DNA of 64,000 nucleotides from Escherichia coli (GTDB lineage Bacteria > Pseudomonadota > Gammaproteobacteria > Enterobacterales > Enterobacteriaceae). The notes under the pieces are model-generated. The model did not search any database and had not been told where the DNA came from. It saw nothing but the letters and a program-made list of their open reading frames with translations. A program made the translations under genes and the position numbers. This document shows, in pieces, positions 6,013 through 11,281 of this stretch. The stretch is from the NCBI RefSeq assembly GCF_036507355.1, contig NZ_AP027877.1; one strand, given 5' to 3'. Every line of letters starts with the position of its first letter. The stretch's first letter is position 1.

Positions 6013-6128
6013 GCGAGCAGCATTCCTGATTTTAAACGTGAACGCCGCTGGAAGAATTATCAGGTATAGAATGGCGTCGGGTGCTTGAGGCTGTCTGGCG
6101 TTAAGCATTCGCGAGGTTCCAGATGGAC

Positions 6129-6181
6129 AAAAGCCCCAGGCGATATTTCTATCAACCTGAGGCTCGCGTTCGAACGTAGCA
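6129..6181 (-). ncRNA. candidate Sok-like antisense RNA of the hok locus
   Basis: Minus strand: -35 TTGCCT (6216..6211), 17-bp spacer, -10 TAACAT (6193..6188), then about 55 nt ending in an 8-bp hairpin (gcctcagg/cctggggc) plus UUUU; antisense to the hok leader. Confidence 0.4.
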
Positions 6182-6219
6182 ATTCGGATGTTAGTCTCTT
6201 CTTTGCAGGGAGGCAAGAC

Positions 6220-6372
6220 ATGCTAACAAAATATGCCCTTGTGGCAATCATAGTACTGTGTTGTACAGTACTGGGATTCACGCTCATGGTAGGCGACTCG
6301 TTATGTGAGTTGAATATCAGAGAGCGTGGTATGGAGTTTAAGGCAGTTCTCGCTTACGAATCGAAGAAGTAG
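6220..6372 (+). CDS. Hok/Gef-family type I toxin (small membrane peptide)
   Basis: 50-aa product [50 protein letters not shown], closely resembling chromosomal Hok peptides (HokE-like as I recall it); SD gcagggagg upstream; leader begins with the hok-type motif ggtgcttgaggctgtctggc. Confidence 0.8.
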
Positions 6373-6737
6373 CCACCACGTGGGGGTAAAACCCCGCGTA
6401 TTGAATTGTGATGGTTTGGTCTCCTGCACCCTTTTTTAAATTTATATTTTTTATGTGAATATATTGTCTCTATTTATTATTATGAATTTCAAATGAAAAT
6501 CATAAATTTATTCACAATATAAATGTTTTATTGGCTGATATATATCACAGATAATTTTTAAAATATGCGTAAATATCCTTTAAGTTTACTGAAGGATAAA
6601 AATATTGTGACTTTCTTTGATTTCTGGGGAAAAACCCGACGCGACGAGAAAGAAGGGGGTGACGACTATCACCTTCTTTGCTGGCATTCGCTGGATGTGG
6701 CCGCGATGGGCTATTTAATGGTTAAAAGAAATTGCTT

Positions 6738-6746
6738 CGGGCTGGC
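6738..6746. repeat. IS1 target-site duplication, left copy (CGGGCTGGC)
   Basis: Identical 9-mer immediately flanks both IS1 ends. Confidence 0.85.
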
Positions 6747-6761
6747 GGTAATGACTCCAAC

Positions 6762-7265
6762 TTATTGATAGTGTTTTATGTTCAGATAATGCCCGATGAC
6801 TTTGTCATGCAGCTCCACCGATTTTGAGAACGACAGCGACTTCCGTCCCAGCCGTGCCAGGTGCTGCCTCAGATTCAGGTTATGCCGCTCAATTCGCTGC
6901 GTATATCGCTTGCTGATTACGTGCAGCTTTCCCTTCAGGCGGGATTCATACAGCGGCCAGCCATCCGTCATCCATATCACCACGTCAAAGGGTGACAGCA
7001 GGCTCATAAGACGCCCCAGCGTCGCCATCGTGCGTTCACCGAATACGTGCGCAACAACCGTCTTCCGGAGCCTGTCATACGCGTAAAACAGCCAGCGCTG
7101 GCGCGATTTAGCCCCGACATAGCCCCACTGTTCGTCCATTTCCGCGCAGACGATGACGTCACTGCCCGGCTGTATGCGCGAGGTTACCGACTGCGGCCTG
7201 AGTTTTTTAAGTGACGTAAAATCGTGTTGAGGCCAACGCCCATAATGCGGGCTGTTGCCCGGCAT
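6762..7265 (-). CDS. insB: IS1 transposase InsB (InsAB' C-terminal part)
   Basis: 167-aa [30 protein letters not shown] ... NIKHYQ. Confidence 0.9.
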
Positions 7266-7459
7266 CCAACGCCATTCATGGCCATATCAATGATTTTCTG
7301 GTGCGTACCGGGTTGAGAAGCGGTGTAAGTGAACTGCAGTTGCCATGTTTTACGGCAGTGAGAGCAGAGATAGCGCTGATGTCCGGCGGTGCTTTTGCCG
7401 TTACGCACCACCCCGTCAGTAGCTGAACAGGAGGGACAGCTGATAGAAACAGAAGCCAC
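7184..7459 (-). CDS. insA: IS1 InsA (transposition repressor / InsAB' N-terminal part)
   Basis: 91-aa [43 protein letters not shown]. Confidence 0.9.
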
Positions 7460-7514
7460 TGGAGCACCTCAAAAACACCATCATACACTAAATCAGTAAG
7501 TTGGCAGCATCACC

Positions 7515-7523
7515 CGGGCTGGC
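7515..7523. repeat. IS1 target-site duplication, right copy (CGGGCTGGC)
   Basis: Identical to 6738..6746. Confidence 0.85.
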
Positions 7524-9451
7524 TGATTATTTTCGTCAATTAGGGATTTCTGACAAGGAACAGGCGGCTCAATTTTTCGCCTGGTTGTTGTGCTGGCACG
7601 ATATTGGAAAATTTGCCCGCTCATTTCAGCAACTTTACCTGCACCCACAACTCAAGGTTCCGGAAGGCGCAAGAAAGAATTACGAAAAGATCTCTCATTC
7701 AACGCTGGGCTACTGGTTGTGGCATCATTATTTAAGTGAATGCGAAGAATTGCTTCCTGCCTCTTCACTCTCTACTCGCAAACTTAAACGTGTAATAGCG
7801 ATGTGGATGCCCATGACTACCGGGCATCATGGTCGGCCCCCTGACCGTATTGATGAACTGGATAATTTTCTGCCTGAAGACAAAGTTGCCGCGCGAGATT
7901 TTCTCCTTGAAATCAAGGCACTGTGTCCGCTCATAGAGATTCCCACATTCTGGGATAATGACGAGGGAGTTGAACTTTTAAAACAACTTTCCTGGTATAT
8001 CTCTGCAACAGTCGTACTTGCAGACTGGACGGGTTCGTCAACGCGATTTTTTCCACGCGTCGCACACCCAATGGATATTAAAGATTACTGGCAGAAAACT
8101 TTAGTTCAGGCTCAAAACGCCTTAACCGTCTTTCCTCCAAAAGCAGAAACCGCACCTTTCACCGGAATTAATACGCTGTTTCCTTTTATTGAGCACCCGA
8201 CACCATTACAGCAAAAGGTGCTGGATCTGGATATCAGCCAGCCAGGGCCACAGTTATTTATTCTGGAAGACGTGACTGGCGCAGGTAAAACAGAAGCGGC
8301 GCTTATCCTGGCGCACAGGTTGATGGCTGCGAGGAAAGCACAGGGTTTGTTTTTTGGCCTGCCAACAATGGCAACGGCCAATGCCATGTACGATCGGCTG
8401 GTCAAAACCTGGCTTGCTTTCTATTCGCCAGAGTCCCGCCCCAGCCTGGTGCTGGCACACAGTGCCCGCACATTAATGGACCGCTTTAATGAATCACTCT
8501 GGTCCGGTGATTTAGTCGGGTCAGAAGAACCGGATGAACAAGCGTTCAGTCAAGGATGTGCAGCCTGGTTTGCCGACAGTAACAAGAAGGCTTTACTGGC
8601 TGAAATTGGCGTCGGCACGCTGGATCAGGCGATGATGGCGGTGATGCCGTTCAAACATAATAATCTGCGGCTTCTGGGGCTGAGTAACAAAATCCTGCTG
8701 GCTGATGAGATCCACGCCTGTGACGCTTACATGTCATGCATTCTTGAAGGGCTGATCGAGCGGCAGGCGCGTGGTGGAAACAGCGTCATTTTGCTTTCTG
8801 CTACGTTATCCCAACAGCAGCGCGACAAACTCGTCGCCGCCTTTGCGCGTGGCACAGAGGGCCAGCAAGAAGCTCCGTTCCTTGAAAAGGATGATTACCC
8901 CTGGCTGACGCATGTCACGAAATCCGATGTGAACTCACACCGGGTAGCGACGCGCAAAGACGTTGAGCGTAGCGTCAGCGTGGGTTGGCTTCATAGTGAA
9001 CAAGAGAGTATTGCGCGTATCGAATCGGCGGTAAGTCAGGGAAAATGCATCGCCTGGATCCGCAATTCTGTCGATGACGCTATTAAGGTTCATCGTCAGC
9101 TGCTTGCCCGCGGCGTCATTCCCGCTTCCAGCCTTTCACTCTTTCATAGCCGCTTTGCTTTTAGCGATCGCCAGCGAATCGAAACGGAAACGCTGGCACG
9201 CTTTGGTAAAAATTGTAATTTAAAAAGATCATCGCAAGTCATTGTTTGTACACAAGTAATTGAGCAAAGTGTGGATATTGACCTGGACGAAATGATCTCC
9301 GACCTTGCCCCCATTGATTTGCTGATCCAGCGAGCGGGGCGATTACAGCGACATATCCGCGATATTAATGGTCAGTTAAAGCGTGACGGAAAAGACGAGC
9401 GTTCCCCTCCTGAATTGCTGATTCTGGCCCCCGTCTGGGACGACGCTCCTG

Positions 9452-9781
9452 GTGACGAATGGTTCGGCAGTGCCATGCGTACGCGCCTTTACAGAGGCCG
9501 CGCTTAAAGTCTCACCAACCGGAAAACAAAACAGCTTTGCCAGCCGTGCCTACGCCTCCTGGGCGCTGGCGGAAAAAGGCACTGTTCAACCGCGTTCTCT
9601 GGCGGCGGCTTTCTATGAACCCATTAATGGTACCCGTCAGTTAGATGTGGCGGTGCAGCGTATTACAACGCTTCGCGAAAACATGAATACGGTCTACGAA
9701 CAGAAGACTGAATGCGCAAGTTTTGACGTGATGAACAAACAGGGAAGCATGAAGGACGTACTGGACTTTATCTGCGCGTAA
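9452..9781 (+). other. cas gene remnant: either the 3' end of a Cascade gene (likely cas7e/casC) or a frameshifted Cas3 C-terminal segment
   Basis: 109-codon ORF in the +1 frame relative to cas3, overlapping its end by 55 nt; its stop lies 10 nt before the casD-like start with an intervening SD (aagggg), an operon-internal spacing. Confidence 0.35.
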
Positions 9782-9791
9782 GGGGCGGCTT

Positions 9792-9870
9792 ATGAGCCAA
9801 TATCTGATTTTTCAGCTTCATGGGCCAATGGCATCCTGGGGCGTCGATGCCCCCGGCGAAGTGCGTCATA
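9792..9870 (+). pseudogene. casD: casD (cas5e) 5' remnant, about 25 codons, fused out of frame to cas1
   Basis: N-terminus MSQYLIFQLHGPMASWG matches the Cas5e N-terminus as I remember it from E. coli (MRSYLILRLAGPMQAWG); similarity is lost where the Cas1 frame begins. Confidence 0.6.
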
Positions 9871-10973
<1,103 letters not shown>

Positions 10974-11069
10974 GTTATGTGTTCTTTAAAAATAAGGAAA
11001 TGTTTGAATTTAGTTGGTAGATTGTTGATGTGGAATAAATTTGTTTAAAAACAGATATGTATGCTTAGT
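10974..11069 (+). promoter_or_regulatory. CRISPR leader (AT-rich)
   Basis: About 95 bp of AT-rich sequence between the cas2 stop and the first repeat. Confidence 0.7.
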
Positions 11070-11281
11070 GTGTTCCCGGCGCCAGCGGGGATAAACCGAC
11101 GAGGGGCTCGTTATTCGGGAAATTACAAAAGTGTTCCCCGCGCCAGCGGGGATAAACCGGCCCAGGGATTTGTTCAATCCAGCGTGCCGCTGTGTTCCCC
11201 GCATCAGCGGGGATAAACCGGGCGCACTGGATGCGATGATGGATATCACTTAGAATTCCCCGCCCCTGCGGTAGAACTCCC
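11070..11281 (+). CRISPR. type I-E CRISPR array: 3 spacers of 32 nt, three 29-bp repeats and a degenerate terminal repeat
   Basis: Repeats GTGTTCCCGGCGCCAGCGGGGATAAACCG (11070..11098), GTGTTCCCCGCGCCAGCGGGGATAAACCG (11131..11159), GTGTTCCCCGCATCAGCGGGGATAAACCG (11192..11220), degenerate gaattccccgcccctgcggtagaactccc (11253..11281); spacers at 11099..11130, 11160..11191, 11221..11252. Confidence 0.9.

Follow-up and report, generated by a model that had tools for sequence, protein, structure and literature searches.

Interference by CRISPR-Cas systems of type I-E requires the Cascade complex (Cse1, Cse2, Cas7, Cas5, and Cas6e), processing of CRISPR RNA (crRNA) by Cas6e, and Cas3. In intact Escherichia coli loci of the cas-E1 variant, the genes run in the order cysH, hok/sok, cas3, casA, casB, cas7e, cas5e, cas6e, cas1e, cas2e, CRISPR, and iap. 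Almendros et al. (2014) described “minor arrangements” with partial or interrupted cas genes and insertion sequence (IS) elements in E. coli and Shigella (PMC3903273), and a 2025 survey of 237 urological E. coli isolates found 7 incomplete I-E operons, which kept cas1, cas2, and cas3 and were ascribed to recombination (PMC12736100). Orphan CRISPR arrays without cas genes also occur at iap in E. coli, mostly in phylogroup B2 (PMC3903273; PMC12736100). Here we describe a 64,000-nucleotide stretch of E. coli DNA (contig NZ_AP027877.1 of assembly GCF_036507355.1; the whole stretch is referred to below as the window), which contains the chromosomal type I-E CRISPR-Cas locus adjoining cysH, in its cas-E1 variant. 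We consider it highly probable that this locus is in advanced decay as the result of three separate mutational events and that it is now nonfunctional. This is an ordinary, well-documented kind of E. coli CRISPR-Cas decay, of a class that is already known.

The gene order of the window (cysJ, cysI, cysH, hok/sok, cas3 to cas2, CRISPR, iap, cysD, cysN, and cysC) is the same as in annotated E. coli genomes, and the site between cysH/hok-sok and iap is collinear and highly identical in nucleotide sequence with intact E1 loci. In ~2,700 complete E. coli genomes, the window DNA aligns at 92 to 100% nucleotide identity to genes annotated as cas3, cas7e, cas5e, cas1e, and cas2e, which rules out the possibility that the matches to Cas5e and Cas1 on which the original prediction was built are spurious. 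As references for the breakpoints, we used three loci in which the parts concerned are intact, those of strain 13TMH22 (L003), strain 2017-02-2CC (L015), and O157:H7 (L021). Comparison with these by blastn divided the window locus into five collinear blocks, namely, the upstream region with cas3 nucleotides (nt) 1 to 183 (6383 to 6746); an IS1 element lying between the first two cas3 blocks (6747 to 7514); cas3 nt 175 to 2141 (7515 to 9481); cas7e nt 755 to cas5e nt 86 (9480 to 9877); and cas1 from nt 117, followed by cas2, the leader, and the array (9876 to 11220). In total, ~4.93 to 4.95 kb of DNA has been lost, in two blocks, where roughly 4 to 5 kb had been predicted.

At the first joint (joint 1; 9480 to 9481), three-way alignment places the fusion between cas3 nt 2141 and cas7e nt 755, with 2 bp of microhomology (TA). 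The deletion measures 3,538 bp in L003 coordinates and 3,522 bp in those of L015, and with it went casA and casB in full, together with the intergenic DNA between cas3 and casA, the C-terminal 186 codons of cas3 on one side, and nt 1 to 754 (72%) of cas7e on the other. The 300-bp 3′ remnant of cas7e (casC) that follows on the plus strand (9481 to 9781) consists of the last 100 codons and the native stop codon (9779 to 9781); it matches positions 248 to 325 of 325 in the NCBIfam model casC_Cse4 and amino acids (aa) 258 to 357 of Cas7e with 98% identity by tblastn, and cas7e is annotated beneath the remnant's match in more than 2,600 genomes. Like the second joint, joint 1 is out of frame. Comparison of the frames in the sequence and in the list of open reading frames (ORFs) showed that the plus-strand cas3 ORF (7501 to 9507) acquires from cas7e DNA a tail of 8 foreign codons, TRLYRGRA, before a TAA (tail, 9481 to 9507; stop, 9505 to 9507). 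This stop lies 51 codons past the helicase motif QRAGRLQR, close to the ~55 codons between motif VI and position 9507 in the original prediction. A 100-aa Cas7e remnant found on 83 contigs (P0018) was considered as another carrier of joint 1 and rejected, its sequence being that of a different allele that is incompatible with the joint.

The cas7e remnant is separated by the native 10-bp spacer from the start of cas5e (casD), of which a plus-strand 5′ stub remains (9792 to 9877) with the native ribosome-binding region and 28 codons, where ~25 codons from a Cas5e-like start at 9792 had been proposed. Its ATG at 9792 begins MSQYLIFQLHGPMASWG, and the native sequence runs for 86 nt, matching only positions 1 to 38 of NCBIfam casD_Cas5e and corresponding in blastn to L003 8313 to 8398. 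At the second joint (joint 2; 9876 to 9877), located by the same three-way alignment, cas5e nt 86 is fused to cas1 nt 117, again with 2 bp of microhomology (GA). The deletion here is 1,407 bp and took cas5e from nt 87 onward, all of cas6e, and codons 1 to 39 of cas1. The stub's ORF reads on out of frame through cas1 DNA to 9998, and the cas1e remnant (9877 to 10683, plus strand; codons 40 to 306 and the stop) begins exactly at I40, in a different frame from cas5e, with the residues IRTHIPVGS, the very point at which a switch of frame into Cas1 had been proposed. The remnant matches residues 40 to 304 of PDB 3NKD and positions 36 to 268 of NCBIfam cas1_ECOLI, for which, without residues 1 to 39 and the native start, it still scores 345 bits against a cut-off of 215.6 bits, and from 9877 to 10400 its nucleotide identity to O157:H7 cas1e is 100%.

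Whether one or two deletions had occurred was a question raised at the outset. Because a 396-bp block that runs from the 3′ end of cas7e through the intergenic spacer into the 5′ end of cas5e survives between the joints in its native order and orientation, we concluded that there were two deletions, not one. Mediation by an IS was rejected, since neither joint contains IS sequence or an IS end and self-BLAST revealed no second IS copy in the window; we therefore read the joints as probable products of illegitimate recombination. Breakpoint mapping thus agrees with the original prediction that the Cascade genes have been deleted, leaving chimeric junctions of cas3, the cas5e start, and cas1, and the alignment to intact loci and the search for microhomology that it proposed gave the breakpoints and the 2-bp matches described above. 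Its list of missing sequences stands for cse1, cse2, most of cas5e, cas6e, and the start of cas1 but not for cas7e, the last 100 codons of which remain. Absent from it were the cas7e remnant itself, the IS1 in cas3, the loss of the native cas1 start, and the probable loss of adaptation.

The survey of related strains was made by exact-protein look-ups with the truncated Cas3, the Cas7e remnant, and the chimeric Cas1 as queries. The same locus was found in assemblies GCA_905398585.1, GCA_016660925.1 (placed by gene spacing alone), ERR3330519, and SRR31122001 and in a 529-bp metagenome contig from ENA (L010); the relatives that were aligned carry both joints and are 99.9 to 100% identical to the window. 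The Logan assembly of SRR31122001 (L014 / L006) has the locus on two contigs, with an overlap of ~30 bp in nonrepetitive sequence of the cas7e remnant (window positions ~9621 to 9650); this break may reflect a mixed sample or a graph branch arising from a second cas7e allele.

The third lesion is the IS1 (6747 to 7514), which has the full 768-bp length, terminal inverted repeats, insA and insB on the minus strand (both ORFs match NCBIfam transpos_IS1), and a flanking 9-bp target duplication, CGGGCTGGC, at 6738 to 6746 and 7515 to 7523. It interrupts cas3 at codon 61, severing a plus-strand 5′ fragment (6565 to 6746; codons 1 to 61, with the start of the HD domain; Cas3 aa 1 to 61 at 96.7% identity by tblastn; positions 4 to 38 of NCBIfam PRK09694) from a plus-strand middle fragment (7515 to 9480; nt 175 to 2141 of 2,700). 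The middle fragment, 92 to 95% identical by blastn to L003, L015, and L021, contains the helicase core as far as motif VI and, ahead of it, the remainder of the HD domain, and it matches NCBIfam cas3_HD and cas3_core, PRK09694 positions 52 to 665 of 878, and, by tblastn, Cas3 aa 59 to 717 of 899. The insertion site is empty in sister assemblies L004 and L005, which, without IS1, encode a 721-aa truncated Cas3. None of the relatives that span the cas3 5′ end has an IS1 there, and because these joint-carrying relatives have an uninterrupted cas3, the IS1 is the latest event and is private to the window genome.

Other insertions were seen at this end of the operon. E. coli VREC0864 (L019, 1731 to 2498) has a second, independent IS1 in the cas3 5′ end, which lies 17 bp upstream of the window's site, is oppositely oriented, and is flanked by a separate 9-bp duplication, GTTAAAAGA; the same strain has a Cascade deletion unlike those of the window (casA+226 to cas7e+768). 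Further elements are an IS1203 within cas3 in L003 and an IS421 just upstream of cas3 in L002 and L015, so that IS elements seem to target the beginning of cas3 frequently.

The sequence of events that we propose would then be an illegitimate-recombination deletion of ~3.5 kb joining cas3 nt 2141 to cas7e nt 755 over 2 bp of microhomology and without IS involvement, a 1,407-bp deletion joining cas5e nt 86 to cas1 nt 117 over a further 2-bp microhomology, and finally the entry of IS1 into cas3 codon 61, in this strain only. What remains of the effector genes is little. With intact Cas proteins as tblastn queries, no match to CasA, CasB, or Cas6e was found anywhere in the window, and full-length Cascade homologs are thus lacking there; Cas7e is represented only by aa 258 to 357 and Cas5e only by aa 1 to 28. 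Cas3 is likewise incomplete, with aa 1 to 61 and 59 to 717 of 899 in separate pieces, PRK09694 positions 666 to 878 absent, and a PRK09694 score of 367 bits, below the cut-off of 569 bits. Because Cascade, Cas6e, and a usable Cas3 are all missing or broken, the strain is predicted, as originally claimed, to be incapable of type I-E interference from this locus.

Adaptation is affected in a different manner. The cas1 start codon normally overlaps the cas6e stop codon, and the deleted cas3-casA intergenic region is, we assume from the K-12 locus, the site of the Cascade operon promoter. With the initial strands of the Cas1 N-terminal domain missing, and with cas1 no longer coupled translationally to cas6e or served by the operon promoter, the capacity to acquire spacers has very probably been lost as well. 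The intact cas2e gene (10680 to 10973, plus strand; 97 aa), which matches NCBIfam cas_CT1978 over its full length and above the cut-off and whose exact protein occurs on more than 1,000 E. coli contigs, would in that case persist as a fossil together with the leader and the three-spacer array.

The fragments themselves show few signs of age. Differences between the remnants and intact alleles are nearly all synonymous (synonymous to nonsynonymous, 15:1 in cas7e, 3:0 in cas5e, and 31:4 in cas1), implying that the divergence is allelic variation accrued under selection and not decay after inactivation and that the deletions are recent; the fragments therefore appear to have been under purifying selection until recently, without further decay. 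The allelic background is a patchwork. No difference separates the window from the O157:H7 allele (L021) between 9805 and ~10276, an interval that takes in joint 2 and ~400 bp at the start of the cas1 remnant, but just upstream, in cas7e, divergence from L021 rises abruptly to 5%, and along cas3 it is patchy (0.5 to 18%, or 1 to 37 differences per 200 bp). For the cas7e remnant and cas3, the highest identity to any complete genome is ~96 to 97%. This mosaic structure is consistent with past recombination, which has been documented within the E. coli Cascade region (PMC3903273).

The same pattern gives some weight to the possibility that the deleted configuration, in whole or in part, entered this lineage from a different E. 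coli lineage through homologous recombination, as a mosaic of donor alleles: the segment that spans joint 2 matches O157:H7 exactly, the cas7e remnant and cas3 are only 92 to 97% identical to any complete genome, and the patchiness of cas3 and the published recombination point the same way. Mosaicism of the parental allele before the deletions would explain these observations equally well, however. Moreover, neither joint 1 nor joint 2 was present in any of 5,426 complete E. coli genomes (the window's own genome evidently not being among them), and 26-mers spanning either joint had no match in the JGI metagenomes, so that no joint-carrying donor is at hand in either collection. We regard import as unlikely, and it would alter only the place where the deletions happened, not the identity of the locus.

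Two independent deletions are also to be weighed against a single complex event, such as two template switches in one replication or repair episode, that would have made both joints at once. The joints occur together in all five of the assemblies that could be checked across both positions, they share the signature of a 2-bp microhomology and no IS, and no complete genome has either one alone. A 574-bp ENA metagenome contig (ERZ926208; L009) bears on this question, in that it has joint 1 base for base as in the window but continues into normal cas5e for 53 bp past the position of joint 2. At face value, L009 is possibly an intermediate with the first deletion only. It also lacks a derived T at 9709 that is found in all double-deletion assemblies while having their derived base at 9760, and the absence of the T is one point in favor of a real lineage over sequence from the same strain. 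As two simple deletions are in addition more parsimonious, and single deletions of both types occur independently in other E. coli strains, we think it quite unlikely that one event made both joints, even though the sole sequence with joint 1 alone may be a chimera.

Several points weigh against our account of two successive deletions followed by IS1 and a nonfunctional locus. In its last 86 bp, L009 has 100% identity to the common cas5e allele of the L015 type, whereas its left 365 bp are of the window allele (364/365), and the switch between the two falls within an 84-bp stretch common to both; either recombination or the chimeric assembly of two strains present in one sample may therefore account for L009. 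The order in which the first deletion preceded the second, which we infer, depends on this one 574-bp contig, and a clean intermediate with joint 1 only was not found, the protein look-ups having returned the double-deletion assemblies and the ambiguous L009. As to function, Cas1 lacking residues 1 to 39 could in principle be translated from ATG codons at 9874 or 9820; loss of function is read here from sequence; and as our inspection covered 64 kb, there may be a second CRISPR-Cas system (e.g., type I-F) elsewhere in the genome.

The reading of two small deletions has parallels. The complete E. coli genomes that we sampled contain seven or more further deletions inside the cas operon that arose independently (L001, L002, and L016 to L020), all with different breakpoints and none with an IS at the joint: cas3+1766 to cas7e+173, cas3+2248 to cas7e+512, cas3+2286 to cas7e+937, cas3+2157 to cas6e+27, cas3+2038 to cas6e+531, casA+226 to cas7e+768, and cas5e+377 to cas6e+551. 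All but one remove casA and casB and keep cas1-cas2. An apparent breakpoint hotspot in the 3′ third of cas3 was dismissed as an ascertainment effect, because the query started at cas3 nt ~1660 and deletions starting upstream of it were undetectable as joined pieces. It is conceivable, if improbable in our estimation, that the recurrence of Cascade-removing deletions (at least eight alleles, including that of the window) reflects selection against interference, for example, through relief of self-targeting or of a barrier to plasmid or prophage uptake. If so, the cell would tolerate, or even benefit from, the cas1′-cas2 module that is left; otherwise, the locus, silenced by H-NS, would be decaying neutrally.

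The region downstream of cas2 has kept its native layout. The leader (10974 to 11069, plus strand) lies between the cas2 stop codon and the first repeat, collinear with the reference loci, and is followed by a short array (11070 to 11281, plus strand) that the repeat search and the sequence resolve into three 29-nt type I-E repeats (at 11070, 11131, and 11192) at 61-nt spacing, with 32-nt spacers. The third spacer occupies 11221 to 11252, and after it comes a degenerate terminal repeat (~11253 to 11281; ~62% identity, by eye). The leader-proximal repeat, which is the repeat copied at every spacer acquisition, carries a C-to-G change at repeat position 9 (11070 to 11098; GTGTTCCCGGCG...), and the sister contigs that reach this far are 100% identical; judging from the sequence, the change would disrupt a base pair of the crRNA hairpin stem. 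For none of the three spacers was a protospacer found within the window or in collections of phages and plasmids, the matches in the latter all being repeat-driven ones to other CRISPR arrays, and over this range of sequences self-targeting or known targets as the reason for the loss of Cascade are unsupported.

We also considered whether cas1′, cas2, the leader, and the array have been kept for a function, either adaptation only or a nonimmune role of Cas1/Cas2. The catalytic domain of Cas1 is undamaged (residues 40 to 306 at 98.9% identity to intact Cas1e, with no stops). The cas1 frame is open upstream to the ATG at 9820 within the cas5e stub, giving a 287-aa chimeric ORF, and an in-frame ATG (9874 to 9876) directly precedes Ile40; cas2 is intact, and published incomplete operons tend to keep cas1, cas2, and cas3 (PMC12736100). 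However, with sisters at least 99.9% identical, the deletions are recent, and intactness is uninformative about selection. In addition, cas1 is without its native start, its translational link to cas6e, and the region of the operon promoter, a crude scan (weak evidence) found no promoter-like site on the plus strand in 9300 to 11100, and the array holds three old spacers with no detectable targets. We consequently give retention for function very little credence. That the joints are artefacts of assembly or sequencing and the locus really intact is vanishingly improbable, as no evidence for it was found, the joints recur unchanged in the ENA metagenome contig and in four more assemblies of separate projects, and the chimeric ORFs are annotated in GenBank on a 4.64-Mb chromosome (BED21181.1 and BED21182.1).

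The cysH-cas3 interval on the other side contains a hok/sok type I toxin-antitoxin locus (6079 to 6372, plus strand), recognized by Rfam sok RF01794 (105 bits; 6079 to 6235) and by the NCBIfam Hok family match of a 50-aa Hok. All of the reference loci have hok/sok annotated at the equivalent place, and as hok/sok accompanies the E1 variant of the cas locus, its presence marks the window as having the “cas-E1” arrangement (Almendros et al., 2014; PMC3903273).

Decay of the locus by two deletions and an IS1 has modest implications. The exact proteins of the chimeric ORFs are recorded as E. coli “hypothetical proteins” (BED21181.1 and BED21182.1), and the cas3, cas7e, cas5e, and cas1 ORFs should be relabeled as fragments of pseudogenes. 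For this small lineage, the IS1 site and the precise joints provide clean clonal markers. Otherwise, the locus has little significance beyond annotation; it is one more example of the dispensability of the E. coli I-E system and of its erosion through IS activity and small illegitimate deletions alike.

Compared with the intact cas-E1 loci of O157:H7 PV15-279, 13TMH22, and 2017-02-2CC, the window has the same site, gene order, leader, and repeat type, and its retained segments have 92 to 100% nucleotide identity to theirs, but it is ~4.9 kb short in two blocks, has an IS1 in cas3, has five genes absent or reduced to stubs, and has truncated cas3 and cas1. It resembles the published incomplete I-E operons in the internal loss of Cascade genes, in keeping cas3, cas1, cas2, and a short array, and in having an IS in a cas gene (PMC3903273; PMC12736100). 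Whereas the minor arrangements were mostly ascribed to IS elements (PMC3903273), however, the joints of the window are IS free and show 2-bp microhomologies, and whereas the truncated operons of the urological isolates are described as including cas1 (PMC12736100), the cas1 of the window is itself truncated. This particular pair of joints is absent from the 5,426 complete genomes. The orphan arrays at iap, with an array and flanks but no working cas genes, are the likely end point of the same decay, from which the window differs in that it still has substantial cas3, cas1, and cas2 sequence and a leader.

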